The translations under genes were made by a program, and so were the position numbers. From Escherichia phage muut: DNA of 64,000 nucleotides. The notes beneath the pieces were generated by a model. It made no database searches. It was not told the origin of the DNA and worked only from the letters and a program-made list of their open reading frames with translations. Location: the sequence record NC_052657.1, one strand, 5' to 3'. Below, piece by piece: positions 8,958-61,284 of the stretch (the stretch's first letter is position 1; each line of letters opens with the position of its first letter).

Positions 8958-9388
8958 ATAAATTACTTCAGTGTTACCACAAAGTGACGAACTGCTTTTC
9001 GTGCAGCAGAAGCCAGAGGCTTAGCATACTTAAGTTCATCTTTTTCCATTATAAATTCTCTTTTAAATGAAAATGCAGGACTTATTGGCATTGCCTGCGC
9101 AAGCCCTCAAGGGGAACATAGGTTTTTGTATATTTAACGACCAGGATAACCATAAACCCGTCATCATTCACATTCAAGAGGTACACCATAAAACTGCCGG
9201 GGTCTTAAAACTATAATGATTCGCAAATCATTAATCAGACAGTTCGATGGCTCCTCGATTTTAGCTCACACTAAGGCAGTGAATCTCCAATAAACTAAAA
9301 AATCACTTAAAAAGAACCGCTAGAGTTTGAAGGAGAAAACCATGAGCGAAAAGAGAAATTTTCTCTAGCGATTCCATTTAAATAATCT

Positions 9389-9463
9389 TGGAGCGAGTAA
9401 CAGGACTTGAACCTGCACCTGGAGGGTGGAAACCTCATATGCTACCATTAACACTATACCCGC
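9389..9463 (-). tRNA. tRNA-Gly (anticodon UCC)
   Basis: 75 nt; anticodon loop TTTCCAC, T arm GCAGG-TTCAAGT-CCTGT, acceptor GCGGGTA/TACTCGC with one G-U, CCA. Confidence 0.6.
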
Positions 9464-9518
9464 TTAACAATATTACTCTAACATATTATTAGCCCCTTTG
9501 TCAAGAGGCTTTTAATAT

Positions 9519-9842
9519 TTATTTTAAAATAGTAGATGCACCACGTCTGTTTAGATATGCAACCGTAAAGCTCAAATCACCTATTTCTTCAGGTTCCCAC
9601 TGACCTTCTAAGCCATAACAAGAACAATGATATGCGTGTACTTCATAAAACAAAGATGTTTTCATATCATAGAAATAAACGTGAGATTCGCCTTCATAAT
9701 ATGCACAATCATAAGTGGCAGAAAGAATTACAATGTTATCCTTATCTAACTCTACTTCATAATATCTTTCAACATCTTCAATATCATCAAAACCATCGAA
9801 AACATTGATATTAAAATATTTCTCTAACTCTTTTTCTGTCAC
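9519..9842 (-). CDS. hypothetical protein (about 107 aa) embedded in tRNA array
   Basis: ORF between tRNA-Gly and tRNA-Thr; probable GTG start with AGGGGG RBS. Confidence 0.45.
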   Translation of the reverse strand: MTEKELEKYFNINVFDGFDDIEDVERYYEVELDKDNIVILSATYDCAYYEGESHVYFYDMKTSLFYEVHAYHCSCYGLEGQWEPEEIGDLSFTVAYLNRRGASTILK

Positions 9843-9865
9843 ATACACCCCCTTTAGAGTTAAAT

Positions 9866-9940
9866 TGGTGCTCCCACAAGGACTCGAACCTTGATAAGTT
9901 GCTTACAAGGCAACCGTAATAGCCGTTATACGATAGGAGC
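9866..9940 (-). tRNA. tRNA-Thr (anticodon UGU)
   Basis: 75 nt; anticodon arm GTTGC-CTTGTAA-GCAAC, T arm CAAGG-TTCGAGT-CCTTG, acceptor 7 bp with one G-U, CCA. Confidence 0.65.
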
Positions 9941-10019
9941 AAAATATTTGCTTGGTAGGATTTGATACCTACAATTCTAGAAAATTCTAGAGGTTTCTAT
10001 TAACTCTACAAGCACTATT

Positions 10020-10104
10020 TGGCGATGGATCAAGGATTTGAACCTTGCTAGAACTTTCGTTCACGGATTAACAGTCCGTCGCCCAACCACTAGGCCAATC
10101 CATC
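10020..10104 (-). tRNA. tRNA-Asn (anticodon GUU) with unusually long variable arm
   Basis: Exact acceptor GATGGAT/ATCCATC, CCA, discriminator G; anticodon arm ACGGA-CTGTTAA-TCCGT; 15-nt variable hairpin GAAC-GAAA-GTTC. Confidence 0.5.
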
Positions 10105-10111
10105 TTTAATT

Positions 10112-10198
10112 TGGTGCAGGTAGTTGGACTCGAACCAACGAAGCCCCGAAGGGCAGGAGATTTACAGTCTCCAGCAATTGCCGCTATGCGATACCTAC
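10112..10198 (-). tRNA. tRNA-Tyr (anticodon GUA)
   Basis: 87 nt type II; anticodon arm GGAGA-CTGTAAA-TCTCC, variable hairpin GCCC-TTCG-GGGC, T arm GTTGG-TTCGAGT-CCAAC, CCA. Confidence 0.7.
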
Positions 10199-10203
10199 GT
10201 GTT

Positions 10204-10278
10204 TGGTACATCGTGAAGGATTCGAACCTTCGACCTTGGAGTTAAAAGCCCTTGCTCTACCAACTAAGCTAACGATGT
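10204..10278 (-). tRNA. tRNA-Lys (anticodon UUU)
   Basis: 75 nt; exact acceptor ACATCGT/ACGATGT, D arm GCTT-AGTTGGTA-GAGC, loop CTTTTAA, T arm GAAGG-TTCGAAT-CCTTC; anticodon stem only 3 bp. Confidence 0.6.
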
Positions 10279-10406
10279 ATAAATTATCTTTAAAATAGCC
10301 AGTGTTTGCGGCACTGACTATGAGGTATCGGTAAAATGGCTGCCACCATCTGCCGAAAGTTTACTCTGCTAAAGTAAGTAGCCTCAACGCTACATTAAAG
10401 ATAACT

Positions 10407-10492
10407 TGGCGGTAGATGTAGGACTTGAACCTACACGCCGTTTCCGACGACAGTTTAGCAAACTGTTGTGGCTACCATTTCACCAATCTACC
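10407..10492 (-). tRNA. tRNA-Ser (anticodon GCU)
   Basis: 86 nt type II; exact acceptor GGTAGAT/ATCTACC, anticodon arm ACAGT-TTGCTAA-ACTGT, long variable arm, CCA. Confidence 0.7.
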
Positions 10493-10500
10493 GTTTTTAA

Positions 10501-10653
10501 TTATTCAAAACAACCGGAATCTTTTTGTTCTGCTTTTACCATACGAATATTTTTACCATCTTCAGATTGTTGAAGATTAGAATACTCATAAACAACTTTA
10601 TTATTTACAATCTTAACTCCGGTAACAACCTGTCCAATAGTTTTATAATTCAT
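10501..10653 (-). CDS. hypothetical protein (50 aa)
   Basis: Start moved to internal ATG (AGGAG RBS) because longer track ORF overlaps tRNA-Ser(UGA). Confidence 0.4.
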   Translation of the reverse strand: MNYKTIGQVVTGVKIVNNKVVYEYSNLQQSEDGKNIRMVKAEQKDSGCFE

Positions 10654-10671
10654 AAAGCTCCTAGTTGAATT

Positions 10672-10761
10672 TGGAGGAAGATAATGGAGTCGAACCATCA
10701 CCGTATCACTACAATGGGCCAGGGTTCAAACCTGGTTGCGCACCGCTGCGCCCTACCTTCC
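10672..10761 (-). tRNA. tRNA-Ser (anticodon UGA)
   Basis: 90 nt type II; acceptor GGAAGGT/ATCTTCC with one G-U, anticodon arm CCAGG-TTTGAAC-CCTGG, T arm GATGG-TTCGACT-CCATT, CCA. Confidence 0.65.
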
Positions 10762-10824
10762 CGTTATCATACTTTAAATCTAACATAAAACTATCTTGCT
10801 TGTCAAGCAGTTTTTAAAACTTTT

Positions 10825-10906
10825 TGGCCGGGGTGACAGGATTCGAACCTGCATACTCCAATTACTCGGTTAACGCCTGATTAGAAGTCAGGTGAGATAC
10901 ACCCCG
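10825..10906 (-). tRNA. tRNA-Arg-like (anticodon UCU), non-canonical arm order
   Basis: Exact acceptor CGGGGTG/CACCCCG, CCA, T arm GCAGG-TTCGAAT-CCTGT; UCU hairpin sits right after U8-A9 and a D-loop-like segment follows it. Confidence 0.4.
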
Positions 10907-10978
10907 TTTTCACAGTAACTATAACAAAAAACTAAGTAAATGTCAAGATATTTTTACTAAAAATATTATTTAAATTGA

Positions 10979-11084
10979 AGCCTAGTTATGGAATCGAACC
11001 ATATTTCGTATTTAGTTAGACAAAGCGGTCTAACATATTTTTCAGGCTTTGATGGCCTCGGAATTACCAAATACCCTACTAGGC
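10979..11084 (-). ncRNA. tRNA-like element, about 105 nt, with large insertion
   Basis: Exact acceptor GCCTAGT/ACTAGGC and T arm TATGG-TTCGATT-CCATA, no CCA; inner hairpins AGGC-CATCAAA-GCCT and GTTAGAC-CGCTTT-GTCTAAC. Confidence 0.3.
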
Positions 11085-11086
11085 GT

Positions 11087-11171
11087 TGGTGCAAGTGGAG
11101 GGATTCGAACCCTCAAGCATTTAAGCGTTGCGTTTTAAGCACAATGTGTATCACCAATTCCACCACACTTG
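11087..11171 (-). tRNA. tRNA-Leu (anticodon UAA)
   Basis: 85 nt type II; exact acceptor GCAAGTG/CACTTGC, anticodon arm TTGTG-CTTAAAA-CGCAA, T arm GAGGG-TTCGAAT-CCCTC, CCA. Confidence 0.65.
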
Positions 11172-11286
11172 CATATAGGAGATGCATAGCACCTCCTTTT
11201 AAATGGTGGTTCCCCAGGGTTACAATCCCTGCCCTCGACACTTATGAGGTGTGCGCTCTCGTCAGTGAGCTATGGAACCTTGAATA

Positions 11287-11553
11287 TTAAGCATACTGGG
11301 TCATTTCACCAGCTTCGCGTTTCTCCAGAAGAACTGCAATCAAAGCAATAGCTGCTTCTTCTTCGTGAGGAAGCCCCATTTCATCCAGAAGAGCAAGGAA
11401 GTCAATTACCAAACTTTCTGTTTTAAGGCTAACGCTACCATTTTCGTTTTCAGTAAGAACTGATTCAGGATCAAAAATAAAGATTGCTCCACCTTTATTA
11501 TCAATCAATACGTGCTTCTCAATCAATTCTTTGCCATAAGTCTTTTCTGTCAT
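11287..11553 (-). CDS. hypothetical protein (88 aa)
   Basis: ORF with AGGAG RBS; first gene downstream of minus-strand promoter. Confidence 0.5.
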   Translation of the reverse strand: MTEKTYGKELIEKHVLIDNKGGAIFIFDPESVLTENENGSVSLKTESLVIDFLALLDEMGLPHEEEAAIALIAVLLEKREAGEMTQYA

Positions 11554-25536: not shown

Positions 25537-26495
25537 GTAAATTAACAGACGAACAGAAAGCCTTGATTGTATCTATGAAAGCACAAGGTTATTCTTCGCG
25601 TAAGATTGCACAAGAGGTGTTGGGAAGTTCTACTAAGAAGAGCACAGTAAATGATTACTTAGCTCGTGTAAATTCACCACATCGCGGTGCTCCGCAAGAT
25701 AAAGGTGGGCCAGTAATTAAAATTATTGACGTAGAGACAGCACCGGAGATTGTGTATAGCTTCTCACGTTTCAAAGCCTTTATTGCACCTGAACAAGTTA
25801 TTCGTCGAGGTTACTTGCTTTCCTATTCATCTGCTGATTTAGAAACAGGGGAAGTAGAAGGTAAGAACCTTAGCAATTACCCTCTGTTTGACATAGATCA
25901 TACAGATGATTGGGAATTATGTCAAGATCTGTGGCACTTGCTTGACGATGCAGATATTGTGATCGCGCACAACGGTATTAAGTTTGATAAGGCTTATATT
26001 AACCAACGTTTTGCTTTTCACGGTATGGAGCCACCATCACACTATGTTGTAATTGATACACTCAAGGCAGCTAAGAAGCAGTTTGCACTACCTTCTAATG
26101 CGCTTAAAGAAATGTGTTTGTATTTTGATACAGAAAACTTTAAACTTGACAATGAAGGTTTTCCTTTGTGGAAAGCATGTTGTGAAGGAGACAGACACGC
26201 CTTCTTCCGTATGCAAACATACAACGATGGTGATGTTGTTTCTCTTAGAGATCTTTACATCAAACTTCGTGCGTGGATTCCACAACATCCTAACGTATCT
26301 GCATTCTATGACGATGAAAAACTTCGTTGTCCTCGTTGCGGTAAAGAGCACCTTGAAGTTGTTCCTGGTAAGGTTTACACAACAGCGGTTAGTACATTCC
26401 AAGTGCTAAGATGCACATCATGTAATAGCCTGTCTCGTGGACGTGTTAATTTGCGTAGCAAAGAGAAGCGTGTAAACACTGTTATTGGAATTTAA
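25533..26495 (+). CDS. DEDD-family 3-prime-5-prime exonuclease with N-terminal HTH and C-terminal zinc ribbon
   Basis: Exo motifs IIDVETAPE and AHNGIKFDKAYI; C-terminal CPRCG...CTSCN. Confidence 0.5.
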   Translation: MSKLTDEQKALIVSMKAQGYSSRKIAQEVLGSSTKKSTVNDYLARVNSPHRGAPQDKGGPVIKIIDVETAPEIVYSFSRFKAFIAPEQVIRRGYLLSYSSADLETGEVEGKNLSNYPLFDIDHTDDWELCQDLWHLLDDADIVIAHNGIKFDKAYINQRFAFHGMEPPSHYVVIDTLKAAKKQFALPSNALKEMCLYFDTENFKLDNEGFPLWKACCEGDRHAFFRMQTYNDGDVVSLRDLYIKLRAWIPQHPNVSAFYDDEKLRCPRCGKEHLEVVPGKVYTTAVSTFQVLRCTSCNSLSRGRVNLRSKEKRVNTVIGI

Positions 26496-26500
26496 TAAAA

Positions 26501-26524
26501 AGGGGCGAAAGCCCCTTTATTTTT
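26501..26524 (+). terminator. rho-independent terminator (GNRA loop)
   Basis: AGGGGC-gaaa-GCCCCT followed by TTATTTTT. Confidence 0.6.
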
Positions 26525-34332: not shown

Positions 34333-34550
34333 TGAAACTACTTTGTGTTGGATTAATTTCTGACTTCAAAGACGTTTTCGAAAAGGGAGCCTCTTATGAG
34401 GCTTCCGAATTACAGAATGGTTTCTGTGATGTTTACGGTAAACGTTTAAAAAAGAATGGTGATCATTGGCTAGGAGTTATGTCTTGCGGTCACATTATAG
34501 TTAATGGTGTAGCCAAGTTTGAAATTATCAAAGGAGAAAAAGATGATTGA
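34332..34550 (+). CDS. hypothetical protein (72 aa)
   Basis: Track ORF. Confidence 0.4.
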   Translation: MKLLCVGLISDFKDVFEKGASYEASELQNGFCDVYGKRLKKNGDHWLGVMSCGHIIVNGVAKFEIIKGEKDD

Positions 34551-39082: not shown

Positions 39083-39583
39083 ATGGCTAAAGTAGTTGAT
39101 GTGTTTGATATGTTACGTTTTGATGAAGGACTAAAGCTAACTGTATATCCTGATACCGAAGGGTATTGGACAGTTGGTATTGGACACCTTCTGACAAAAC
39201 TCAAAGATAAAGCAGAAGCTATACGTATTCTTGATAACTTAGTAGGTAGAAAAACCAATGGGGTTATTACTGAAGCGGAAGCTAGAAGAATCTTTGAGAG
39301 TGACGTAAAGAAAGCGATACAACAAATCCATTCAAGTGCCATATTATCTCCTATTTACGATAAAGTAAGTCCTAATCGTAAAATGGCTATTATTAATATG
39401 GTATTTCAAATGGGATTGAAAGGTGCAGAATCTTTCAAAAATAGCTTGACTTTAGTGAGTAATTCATATTATACTCAAGCCTCTATAAATTTACGTAAAA
39501 GTAAATGGTATCGCCAAACGCCTAATCGCGCAGAGCGTGTAATTCAGGTACTTAAAACTGGAACATTAGACGCTTATAACTAA
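39083..39583 (+). CDS. e: T4-type lysozyme (endolysin, GH24)
   Basis: Collinear with T4 lysozyme: DEGLKLTVYPDTEGYWTVGIGHLL with catalytic E/D/T. Confidence 0.9.
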   Translation: MAKVVDVFDMLRFDEGLKLTVYPDTEGYWTVGIGHLLTKLKDKAEAIRILDNLVGRKTNGVITEAEARRIFESDVKKAIQQIHSSAILSPIYDKVSPNRKMAIINMVFQMGLKGAESFKNSLTLVSNSYYTQASINLRKSKWYRQTPNRAERVIQVLKTGTLDAYN

Positions 39584-39587
39584 ACAA

Positions 39588-39608
39588 AGGGGCGAAAGCC
39601 CCTTTTAT
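39588..39608 (+). terminator. rho-independent terminator (GNRA loop)
   Basis: AGGGGC-gaaa-GCCCCT followed by TTTTAT; same hairpin as at 26501 and 51598. Confidence 0.6.
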
Positions 39609-50783: not shown

Positions 50784-51588
50784 AGTCATATTCATAACTG
50801 GTGCAGGACTATCTGTGGATAGCGGTATCCCAGCTTTTAGAACAGATACTTCTTCAGGGAAGGCGTTATGGTCTTCTTATGATCTTTTTGAGGTCTGTGA
50901 CATTTTCAACTTCCGTGACGGTTATCAGCAAGAACAAGGTGTTCTTGATGCTATGGGTGGTTTAGATGCAGAAGGATATAACCTCTACCGTAAAACTCAC
51001 GACTTTTACAATAAACGTCGCGTGGAATTAGAGAAAGTTGACCCGAATCCAGCACATCTTCAGATTGGAGAATGGTTCAAAAAATATGGCCCAGAACGAA
51101 TTATTAACATTACTACTAACGTGGATGACCTCCTTGAACGAGCAGGAGTAGATAGGGAAGAAGTGCTACATGTGCACGGTTTTCTTCCTGAAATTACTTT
51201 TCAAAGAAAAGCTGGACAACCTACAATTGTAAAAGATGTTGGTTATCAAGCCATAGATGTAGATGACTACCATTATGTAAAACCTAATGTAATTTTCTTT
51301 GGGGAAGCTGCTCCACTTTACACGGATATGTATCATATTTTTGATACTTTGACCATGCAAGATTTGGTTGTTGTAGTAGGATGTTCAAACCAAGTTATCA
51401 ATTTTAATTGGGAATTATTCCCTGCACTTAATATGGGTACAAAAATGATCGTTGTTAACCCAGGAATTAATTACGAAGAAACTCTTCTTTACGAAGACAG
51501 AGGAGTTTTTGTTTATCGAGAAAAGGCCGCAGATGCTTTTAGCAATCCTGCTTTCATAAAAATGATAGAAGATCATTTGACTAAGTAA
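50773..51588 (+). CDS. Sir2-family NAD-dependent deacylase / ADP-ribosyltransferase
   Basis: NAD-binding signature GAGLSVDSGIPAFR near N-terminus; 271 aa. Confidence 0.7.
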   Translation: MPRRVIFITGAGLSVDSGIPAFRTDTSSGKALWSSYDLFEVCDIFNFRDGYQQEQGVLDAMGGLDAEGYNLYRKTHDFYNKRRVELEKVDPNPAHLQIGEWFKKYGPERIINITTNVDDLLERAGVDREEVLHVHGFLPEITFQRKAGQPTIVKDVGYQAIDVDDYHYVKPNVIFFGEAAPLYTDMYHIFDTLTMQDLVVVVGCSNQVINFNWELFPALNMGTKMIVVNPGINYEETLLYEDRGVFVYREKAADAFSNPAFIKMIEDHLTK

Positions 51589-51597
51589 CTTGACCAA

Positions 51598-51621
51598 GGG
51601 GCGAAAGCCCCTTTTCTTATA
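51598..51621 (+). terminator. rho-independent terminator (GNRA loop)
   Basis: AGGGGC-gaaa-GCCCCT followed by TTTTCTTAT. Confidence 0.55.
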
Positions 51622-54420: not shown

Positions 54421-54603
54421 TTATTCTTCCTCCTTCACTTCTTCAACTTTACGAAGCATACGTTTATCAAATGTAGCTTTCTGTAGTTGTTCATTAACAT
54501 CAAACCACACCACTTCGCAAGTATCGTAGGTAGATACCATTACAGTCATTAACATTTCTTCACTAGCAAGACGTACAATATCACCTGTTTTAATATTTAC
54601 CAT
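54421..54603 (-). CDS. hypothetical protein (60 aa)
   Basis: Track ORF. Confidence 0.35.
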   Translation of the reverse strand: MVNIKTGDIVRLASEEMLMTVMVSTYDTCEVVWFDVNEQLQKATFDKRMLRKVEEVKEEE

Positions 54604-55007
54604 AACTCCTCCAGAAGTTTACCAAGTTTAGTTTTAAATTCATTATCCCACGCTATACGAACTATGTCAAGATCACCTTGTGCATTACGTTTTGTATCTA
54701 AGTAGTAACCACCATGCTCATAGCGGTGTTTTATATGCTCGATCAGACGTTCTTTACCACTCTTGGATAAATAGTCATCAAATTCCCCATTGAAAAGGTC
54801 TAAGATTGTTTGTCTATTATCTCCTAATTGAGTGATTCTAAAACTAATCAAAGATCCCTGTAAACCTATATCTGTTTGTTTAAGAGAAAACCCATGACCA
54901 AAGCCGCCTGTAACTATAACAAGCGGTTTTCCTGTGATAGAGCTTTTAATAACATCTTGCTTAGGTTCTGCCAAAGATGTTAGAAACTCTTTTAACCATT
55001 TGAACAT
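54597..55007 (-). CDS. hypothetical protein (136 aa)
   Basis: Track ORF with AGGAGAG RBS. Confidence 0.45.
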   Translation of the reverse strand: MFKWLKEFLTSLAEPKQDVIKSSITGKPLVIVTGGFGHGFSLKQTDIGLQGSLISFRITQLGDNRQTILDLFNGEFDDYLSKSGKERLIEHIKHRYEHGGYYLDTKRNAQGDLDIVRIAWDNEFKTKLGKLLEELW

Positions 55008-55112
55008 AAACTCTCCTGTGTGGCGTGGCTTTGCCTAAGCGCCGAAGGCGCGGATCAAATATAAGCTGAATTTATTACGCCCAGGTAGCCAGGGCGCATA
55101 AATATCAGAAAT

Positions 55113-55361
55113 TTACCATCGAATAACTATTCGAGTAAAGTTTTCATCGTAATGAGATGTTTCTGTATCAATAAAAGTTGAAAAACCTTCAGCATCCAAG
55201 CTAACTTTTACGAAAGTTGGATAGAGCGTGTATATAGCAGCTTCTCTGTCTCCATCTTTAGCTGCTCTTTCAATATACGCGTAGACGTTTTGTAAACTCT
55301 CTTTTGCTTTGTTAAGTTCTGCGTTTTCTGCCAGTTCTCTCATTTTATCTGCTACAGTCAT
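55113..55361 (-). CDS. hypothetical protein (82 aa)
   Basis: Track ORF. Confidence 0.4.
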   Translation of the reverse strand: MTVADKMRELAENAELNKAKESLQNVYAYIERAAKDGDREAAIYTLYPTFVKVSLDAEGFSTFIDTETSHYDENFTRIVIRW

Positions 55362-55630
55362 TTGTCAGTATCCTTTTCAATAAATCCTGTGGTTTTACAA
55401 GGCACACATTCATACATTTGTCCAACATCTGCAACTACCCAACCCATTCCACTGCAATAAGGGCAGATTGTTTTGTTCTCTTTAGCATACACAGCCAGAA
55501 GTCTTTCTTCTAGCTTATTGTAATCAGCAAGAAGAACATAATCCCCTTCTGGATCTGGTACAATATCACATTGACCAGCAGCACCTTGGCTGTACACCTC
55601 TAAGTCATATCGTGTAACCATTATTCCCAC
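55358..55630 (-). CDS. hypothetical Cys-containing protein (90 aa), paralog of 60765-60989
   Basis: Shares CDIV-DP-G-Y...DY..L block with ORF 60765-60989. Confidence 0.45.
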   Translation of the reverse strand: MGIMVTRYDLEVYSQGAAGQCDIVPDPEGDYVLLADYNKLEERLLAVYAKENKTICPYCSGMGWVVADVGQMYECVPCKTTGFIEKDTDK

Positions 55631-55839
55631 TCCGCAATCAGTTTTGGATTTTCTGCACGAGAATAGAATGTTGTAATGTCACCGTAAGTGTACTCTTGTT
55701 CCGACAGTTTTACAAGAGAGATCATTTCACGATCTGGAGTACCGGAGATCCAATCGAACACAGCAACACCCCGAGGTGTTACATAGAAACCAGATGTATT
55801 ACCCGTAAACTTATCTTTTGCTTTATATAATTTGTACAC
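55621..55839 (-). CDS. hypothetical protein (72 aa)
   Basis: GTG start with GAGGAG RBS; first gene after conserved upstream element. Confidence 0.4.
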   Translation of the reverse strand: MYKLYKAKDKFTGNTSGFYVTPRGVAVFDWISGTPDREMISLVKLSEQEYTYGDITTFYSRAENPKLIAEWE

Positions 55840-56556: not shown

Positions 56557-56733
56557 GTGTCAACATCTTTGTGTTAATTTTATCCACTGTTCACATTCTT
56601 CTTTTGTGTCGTACTCTACAGGCTTCCCTGTATCATTTCCACAACCATCTCCGAACGTAGCCCACCAGGAGAATAGAAAACAAGTTTCTCTTACTCTCCA
56701 CTTATTGGCATAGGGTACAACATAATAACTCAT
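56557..56733 (-). CDS. hypothetical protein (58 aa)
   Basis: Sub-cutoff ORF with AAGGA RBS; start overlaps upstream stop. Confidence 0.35.
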
Positions 56734-61035: not shown

Positions 61036-61284
61036 TCACCAAACCGTTACTACTCCGGTACGTAGCGTCTCTTCATGTCCCCAAATATCCGCTTCAATTG
61101 TAATTACAACCCACTCCGTGTTCCACTGAATACCAGTGATCTCTGTGAGATGTGCAGCTTCACGTTGTAGTGAGGCTGTGTCTGTAAGAGACGCACGTAA
61201 AGCATCCAATTCTTGTTCAATTTTGGTACGTTCTTCTTCGGTAATCGGTGTACCAACACGATCAAAGGTAAAAATATCTAACAT
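61036..61284 (-). CDS. hypothetical protein (82 aa)
   Basis: Track ORF. Confidence 0.4.
   Translation of the reverse strand: MLDIFTFDRVGTPITEEERTKIEQELDALRASLTDTASLQREAAHLTEITGIQWNTEWVVITIEADIWGHEETLRTGVVTVW

Follow-up and report, generated by a model that had tools for sequence, protein, structure and literature searches.

A selectively maintained structured spacer between two genes of Justusliebigvirus phages and its possible role in the processing of their mRNA

What could a non-coding spacer of 105 nt be doing among phage genes whose neighbours overlap or lie only a few bases apart? The question arises in the right arm of the stretch of DNA that was analysed (64 kb, hereafter the window), which belongs to a Justusliebigvirus, a phi92-like myovirus of the subfamily Stephanstirmvirinae. 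Every gene of this arm is placed on the minus strand, and positions 55008-55112, between the homologues of phi92 gp026 and gp027, form the sole sizeable non-coding gap among these tightly packed genes. This gap is the largest within what seems to be a single early operon; the first good promoter-like site upstream of it is located at 56563, and a clear terminator at ~52340. The 1.4-kb stretch around it was matched by 54 phage records at 97-99.8% identity.

The gene upstream of the spacer, the gp026 homologue, is known from the ORF list and from the phi92 annotation (55113..55361, minus strand); it encodes 82 aa and ends with the stop codon TAA at 55115-55113. Using tblastn it was found only in the 54 Justusliebigvirus records. 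The downstream gene, the gp027 homologue (54597..55007, minus strand, ATG at 55007-55005), encodes 136 aa and was found by tblastn in 133 records, being kept across the Stephanstirmvirinae at 35-50% identity in a gene neighbourhood that is rearranged among the members of the subfamily. No Pfam family was found for the gp026 homologue and no Pfam domain for the gp027 homologue, the PHROG family of each is without known function, and neither of the two proteins gave a match to a DNA-binding domain. Inside the gp027 coding sequence, at 54670-54642 on the minus strand, is located the best promoter-like match of the neighbourhood (TTGACA-17-GATAAT with TG, 11/12), which could drive gp028 and the genes beyond.

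The initial annotation had described a GC-rich island with two GC hairpins and had offered a small RNA, an RNase processing site or a protein-binding element as its possible nature. The location and the strand that it gave were correct, and the enrichment in GC was borne out, although it is moderate: the 105 nt have 48.6% GC against 37.1% for the window, which corresponds to the 98.3rd percentile of 105-nt windows, and the best 80-nt stretch of the spacer reaches 56% GC (99.9th percentile). The most GC-rich 105-nt stretches of the window are accounted for by a repeat region at ~8150-11300, where direct-repeat families with GGnnTCGAACC, typical of reversed tRNA T-arms, point to a minus-strand tRNA gene cluster. 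With regard to coding, the sole ORF of at least 20 aa that touches 55008-55112 is antisense and stops at 55038.

From the gp026 stop codon to the gp027 start codon the sense (minus) strand reads UAA-AUUU-[CUGAUAUUUAUGCGCCCUGGCUACCUGGGCGUAAUAAAUUCAG]-CUUAUAUUUGAUCC-[GCGCCUUCGGCGC]-UUAGGCAAAGCCACGCCACAC-AGGAG-AGUUU-AUG, and both of the hairpins previously claimed are present on this strand. The one described as CGCCC paired with GGGCG does exist, but its extent had been set too small, since it is only the top of a longer irregular hairpin of 43 nt and 18 bp (hairpin 1, 55066..55108, minus strand) that begins 4 nt past the gp026 stop codon. Hairpin 1 is laid out as CUGA-[U]-AUUUAU-G·U-[A]-CGCCC-U·U-GG-(CUA), with a GC core at 55078-55096, a CUA loop, a U·U mismatch and two bulged bases, U (55104) and A (55076). 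Its folding energy is -18.6 kcal/mol (z = -4.57, 0/200 shuffles equally stable), which gives it rank 11 when the 50-nt windows of both strands of the 64 kb are compared, and its pairing probability is mostly 0.8-0.97 across flank contexts, the four basal pairs falling to 0.58 in one of them. The most stable 50-nt folds of the window are found at 34381-34430 (plus strand, -25.8 kcal/mol), which is a double hairpin, and at 61141-61190 (plus strand, -23.7 kcal/mol).

Hairpin 1 is followed by an AU-rich linker of 14 nt, CUUAUAUUUGAUCC (55052..55065, minus strand), which is mostly single-stranded (unpaired probability 0.38-0.82 by context) and contains a U-rich tract, a -10-like TATATT (55058-55063) and single copies of a GATC site and of an RNase E-type motif (AU|AUU). 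Next comes hairpin 2, GCGCC-UUC-GGCGC (55039..55051, minus strand), with five G-C pairs and a 3-nt loop, the end of which is 21 nt from the Shine-Dalgarno sequence; its 13 nt alone fold with -7.1 kcal/mol, and with -8.5 kcal/mol (z = -2.4) when flanking bases are included, and the pairing probability is 0.38-1.0 by context. The 75-nt core has a z of -3.76, and none of 200 shuffles was equally stable. Between hairpin 2 and the ribosome-binding site there is a weak GGC...GCC mini-helix and then an A/C-rich tract, GGCAAAGCCACGCCACAC, running into that site (55018..55035, minus strand); the mini-helix region has alternative 3-bp pairings with probabilities of 0.06-0.85 by context, and position 55018 carries a single C/U polymorphism. 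The Shine-Dalgarno AGGAG of the gp027 homologue (55013..55017, minus strand), read from the sequence 5 nt 5' of the ATG, is listed in the phi92 annotation as a ribosome-binding site.

Other possible features of the spacer were considered and rejected. A micro-ORF of 14 codons (MRPGYLGVINSAYI) inside hairpin 1 has no ribosome-binding site, and its ATG is changed to ATA in phages SD2 and PHB05. A long-range helix between the stop codon region of gp026 and the translation start of gp027 (ribosome-binding site and start codon) would hint at translational coupling but was seen in the 121-nt fold only; its pairing probability is 0.9 in this 121-nt fragment and 0.0-0.06 with at least 30 nt of flank, and the helix is an artefact of the folding window. 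A riboswitch-like alternative pairing of GGCG (55040-55043) with CGCC (55023-55026) had a probability of 0.0 in every context.

The spacer is under purifying selection and, though non-coding, it is constrained like protein-coding sequence. In a 1.6 kb alignment of 13 genomes, drawn from the most divergent records, variation was restricted to 5 of its 105 sites and one 1-nt insertion, whereas the genes on either side vary, in these 13 genomes, at 89/428 third-codon sites and 40/176 fourfold-degenerate sites (21-23%; Fisher p ≈ 3e-5 for the spacer against silent sites). The spacer, at 4.8%, is close to the 3.5-3.9% of variable sites seen at codon positions one and two. Moreover, all 54 records keep the spacer region at at least 97.7% identity over 221 nt. 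The initial annotation had named a lack of conservation in relatives as the outcome that would speak against it; comparison with the homologous phages gave the opposite result, the spacer having changed less than silent sites in every relative that carries it.

The structure itself is also preserved. RNAalifold returned the same fold, and 0/36 consensus pairs are broken in the 13 genomes. The changes at paired sites are two, one of them at 55097 in hairpin 1, and both are G·U↔A-U exchanges, which keep the pairing only in the sense RNA and so favour a sense RNA over a DNA palindrome. The antisense strand of hairpin 1 folds with only -15.4 kcal/mol, that is 3.2 kcal/mol weaker than the sense RNA, and this strand difference together with the pairing that has been kept is suggestive of selection on the sense RNA structure. 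As there are only 6 events, the zero count of pair-breaking changes is not significant (estimated p ≈ 0.1), and no compensatory double substitutions were found in the 13 genomes. Among relatives of intermediate distance that might have offered covariation, the protein database gave only sequences of at least 93% identity, IMG/VR two loci, and metagenomes matches of 100%, 50% and 43% only, too small a depth to be of use. Hairpin 2 has no variation in the 13 genomes and the linker differs only by a substitution at 55065 and, in phage UAB_1, by a single inserted U; variable sites amount to 1/46 of the paired and 4/59 of the unpaired positions. Loops and linker are thus conserved like the stems, which also fits recognition by a sequence-specific protein or by RNA polymerase. 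For the protein-binding element proposed earlier this is the favourable side, and the less favourable one is that a regulon-type operator is unlikely because the element is single-copy.

Most likely the hairpins of the spacer control the cutting, stabilising or partial termination of a shared mRNA. In a more specific form, which we hold tentatively and to which we would assign a probability of roughly 40%, the spacer would be a cis-acting intercistronic element for mRNA processing and stability, working in the early polycistronic sense mRNA of phi92-like phages. An RNase processing site, one of the three possibilities first offered, is the best fit to the anatomy of two stable hairpins flanking a mostly unpaired AU-rich linker, and it is from this anatomy that we infer the cleavage, the nuclease and the effect on expression. 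The transcript running from gp026 into gp027 would fold into the 18-bp hairpin 4 nt past the stop codon, the 14-nt linker and the all-GC hairpin 21 nt before the ribosome-binding site, and a host endonuclease would then cut either the exposed linker (RNase E type) or the two-turn hairpin 1 (RNase III type). The upstream RNA would keep a 3' hairpin blocking 3' exonucleases and the downstream RNA would keep a hairpin near its own 5' end. In this way the upstream genes, which are genus-specific, and the conserved gp027 block would be expressed independently and at different levels, and hairpin 1 with its U-rich tail may add some attenuation of read-through.

Support for such processing comes from the two flanking genes, both of which are on the minus strand of a tight operon, and there is a precedent in the phage, since GC hairpins without strong U-runs placed directly before ribosome-binding sites recur in its operons. 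In a comparison by length and placement with substrates of the RNase III type, hairpin 1 (18 bp, a U·U mismatch, two bulges) is in a fitting intercistronic place and only roughly of the ~20-bp length. Against the processing reading stands the chance expectation of the single RNase E-type motif, which is ~1/3 in a 14-nt AU-rich linker.

RNase III sites occur between the early genes of phage T7, and Tuerk et al. reportedly described, in 1988, stable hairpins of the CUUCGG type in intercistronic regions of T4. Like these, the spacer has stable sense-strand hairpins between early genes of one operon, without a canonical terminator tail and with an AU-rich exposed segment adjoining, and hairpin 1 is about two helical turns long, with internal irregularities. 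Unlike the T4 hairpins, hairpin 2 contains CUUCGG in a register that gives a UUC triloop and not a C(UUCG)G tetraloop. The spacer differs further from the T7 and T4 sites in being without sequence similarity to any described site and single-copy rather than recurring.

On the sequences searched, the element is single-copy and confined to Justusliebigvirus. Blastn-short and a covariance model matched only the element itself in the window and in phi92 100-148 kb (~113 kb of the genome in all). A host-derived origin found no backing in 5,426 E. coli genomes, which gave no blastn match at E <= 1, and the pattern of the hairpin core, when searched elsewhere, gave only chance coding-sequence matches in high-GC IMG/VR contigs and in 16 unrelated high-GC bacterial genomes (GTDB). 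A host-derived repeat (REP/BIME-type) or a mobile GC-rich element was rejected, no copies being found in hosts or in unrelated phages.

In more distant relatives the junction of the gp027 homologue has another spacer or lacks one altogether, the latter being the case in ESCO13, Tr1 and 05F01. In phiWec190, phiWec181, PsgM04F and one metagenome contig a 61-nt spacer is located 5' of the gp027 homologue and reads TTGACA-[CACCCUC-UUCG-GAGGGUG]-U-TATTGT (loci L003 573-633, L005 1440-1500, L072 540-600 and L076 ~1140-1200), which amounts to a combined terminator/promoter: a hairpin with a UUCG loop lies within the 17-nt spacer of a consensus promoter and has a U-rich tail. ESCO13 carries its gp024 and gp025 homologues downstream of that of gp027 (L004 2484-3131), whereas in the phage studied here they are found upstream of it (55358-55839); judging from gene order, small early genes are shuffled around the conserved gp027. 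Since gp027 is kept but its surroundings vary, the spacer occupies a junction of gene shuffling at which regulatory cassettes are found in relatives. Hairpin 2 includes CUUCGG, follows a TTGA and has a distance of 31 nt to the ATG, against 36 nt in phiWec190. The spacer may descend from such a cassette, although homology is not demonstrable.

Cassettes of a related kind exist in phi92 itself. Its immediate-early cassette consists of TTGACA-N16/17-TAnAnT, ~10 nt (often CACATAG) and a GGCGG...CCGCC hairpin without a U-run, placed 20-30 nt before the start codon, and ~15 intergenic copies are found in FR775895.2 at 138-147 kb, outside the window (L071 38000-47200). It looks like a promoter with a 5'-UTR stabiliser hairpin, reminiscent of the PeSL cassettes but in a non-T4 phage. 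PeSL cassettes (promoter-early stem-loops) of T4-type phages have a strong sigma-70 consensus promoter and are repeated many times (PMC2839356, PMC4122927). The spacer resembles them as a ~100-bp intergenic stem-loop by a ribosome-binding site, among small genes of unknown function whose order varies between relatives, and at this junction the sister lineage has a textbook version of a PeSL-like layout, its hairpin lying between the -35 and -10 elements. The spacer has the adjacent stable stem-loop of a PeSL but, unlike it, no -35 element, and in the ~113 kb searched it is not repeated. With the phi92 cassette it shares a GC hairpin without a U-run 20-35 nt before the ribosome-binding site and a -10-like hexamer a few bases 5' of hairpin 2; it differs in being without TTGACA and CACATAG and in having an extra 43-nt hairpin at the -35 position. 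A profile built from 15 copies of the phi92 cassette (nhmmer --max, E <= 10) recovered all 15 and gave no match at 55008-55112. Homology to the immediate-early cassettes through the short words AGCUUAUAU and ACGCCACACA was rejected as not significant.

The spacer could also be viewed as a functionless, decayed relic of a promoter/terminator cassette left at the gene-shuffling junction. Gene order at this place differs between genera, with gp026 genus-specific and the gp024/gp025 homologues in ESCO13 on the other side of gp027, and relatives have either no gap at all or a 61-nt promoter-hairpin cassette, the hairpin of which is also CUUCGG-looped after TTGA. A relic is nevertheless contradicted by purifying selection as strong as at non-silent codon positions and runs against the preservation of the region in 54/54 records and the silence of the cassette profile; we find it very unlikely.

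The hairpins had been described as being without a following U-run. This is true of hairpin 2, and of hairpin 1 if only its GC core is considered, but the full hairpin 1 is directly followed by CUUAUAUUU (6 U in 8 nt). The spacer therefore resembles Rho-independent terminators in having a GC-rich hairpin past a stop codon and a U-rich stretch after the full hairpin 1, and one may ask if hairpin 1 with CUUAUAUUU is a leaky intrinsic terminator (attenuator) that stops some of the polymerases leaving gp026 and lowers the transcription of gp027 and later genes. The folding energy of hairpin 1, its distance of 4 nt from the stop codon, which is a common terminator placement, and the hairpin with a U-rich tail of the phiWec190-type sister lineage at the same junction all agree with this. 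Nevertheless, d'Aubenton-Carafa-type scores were strongly negative, with -44 for the full hairpin 1, -54 for its GC core and -33 for hairpin 2, while the clearest terminators of the window score +3 to +23, and a terminator scan of the window did not list the spacer. The hairpin is stable and GC-rich, but an uninterrupted U-tract after a strong stem base is missing: the base of the stem by the U-tract is weak, AU-rich and bulged, the U-tract is interrupted, and the GC core is followed by UAAUAAAUU. The spacer is not a canonical terminator, and an attenuator, which would leave the invariant hairpin 2 unexplained, is in our view unlikely, if worth keeping in mind. Elsewhere on the plus strand of the window a terminator hairpin with a GAAA loop, AAGGGGCGAAAGCCCCTTT, occurs three times in nearly identical form (26490-26519, 39577-39606 and 51586-51615), each time directly before a ribosome-binding site.

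Control could also be exerted at the DNA level. The TATATT of the linker (55063-55058, minus strand) matches the -10 consensus at 5/6 positions, including A at position 2 and T at position 6, and it is still -10-like (TATTAT) in UAB_1, the genome with the insertion. A promoter without a -35 element would start ~7 nt downstream, at the G that is the first base of hairpin 2, giving an RNA with a 5'-terminal hairpin, and a phage or host protein bound to the 43-bp imperfect palindrome (-57 to -15) would govern it and provide the gp027 block with its own regulated start. Such a layout mirrors the ~15 promoter-then-hairpin arrangements of phi92, the phiWec190-type relatives have a consensus promoter, TTGACA-17-TATTGT, at the same junction, and the conservation of unpaired bases like paired ones is in agreement with it. 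Against this stands the -35 region, which is ACCTGG (0/6) at the 17-nt spacing and CCTGGG or TACCTG (at most 1/6) at 16/18 nt, and the extended -10 TGn is absent as well, TATATT being preceded by GCT. Lone -10-like hexamers are frequent in AT-rich DNA, the palindrome has no second copy in ~113 kb of the genome, the flanking proteins are without DNA-binding domain matches, and the G·U↔A-U exchanges favour RNA pairing. A promoter scan found no site in the spacer on either strand, and the spacer is not a sigma-70 promoter; by eye, no match to the consensus sequences of sigma-54, sigma-28, sigma-32, sigma-E or IHF was found in it. We judge regulation at this level to be rather unlikely. A broader formulation makes the spacer a protein-recognised, genus-specific switch, either an RNA operator bound by one of the small proteins encoded nearby that have no known function or a -35-less promoter whose 43-bp palindrome binds a phage-encoded activator or repressor timing the gp027 block. 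Sequence-specific recognition by a protein would predict that loops and linker are conserved as strongly as the stems, as is the case here, and still a switch of this kind seems to us distinctly improbable.

Of the three roles first offered, that of an independent small RNA found no support. The spacer is placed in the middle of an operon, without a promoter-like site or a canonical terminator, the best result of the Rfam scan was Acido-Lenti-1 with 13.7 bits (threshold 37, E = 6.2), no CRISPR-repeat family being matched, and ARAGORN found no tRNA or tmRNA in it. A separate small RNA might act as an antisense RNA or as a decoy resembling a solitary CRISPR-repeat-like hairpin, and the plus strand of hairpin 1 indeed agrees at 12/15 positions with the E. 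coli type I-E CRISPR repeat (GCCAGGGCGCATAAA vs GCCAGCGGGGATAAA). This agreement is on the antisense strand and has a shuffle p of 0.056 before correction for 10 comparisons, and a CRISPR-repeat mimic was rejected; with no promoter or terminator on either strand and no credible Rfam match, a small RNA is hardly to be believed.

Hairpin 1 contains two CCWGG sequences (Dcm/EcoRII sites), which were discarded as uninformative because CCWGG is not avoided in the genome (71 observed against 48 expected). In the window as a whole several words are depleted, namely GGCC (20 against 76 expected), CCGG (21 against 76), CCSGG (3 against 28) and CGCG (30 against 76), and CCWGG and GATC are not. The depletion of GC-rich palindromes suggests a selective avoidance of restriction sites.

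The spacer is a real, selectively maintained, genus-specific structured element of a familiar regulatory kind, undescribed and absent from Rfam; a literature search for Justusliebigvirus found no transcriptomics and no description of regulatory elements. If mRNA processing is indeed its role, it would be a further case of large lytic phages tuning gene dosage in long early operons by RNA structure and not by separate promoters. The finding opens no long-standing question. The spacer marks the border at which genes specific to the genus give way to one kept across the subfamily, and it also has a practical side: Justusliebigvirus phages serve in therapy cocktails and in engineering, and since these 105 nt are under selection they should not be used as if insertions there were neutral.

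Finally, seven records (MG065639, MG065645, MG065656, MG065689, MG065650, OK210077 and OR584014) are named as Campylobacter, Serratia or Pseudomonas phages and are, in the region examined, ~98% identical to coliphages of the subfamily. The hosts named for them may be due to contamination, or the host range may be unusually broad.
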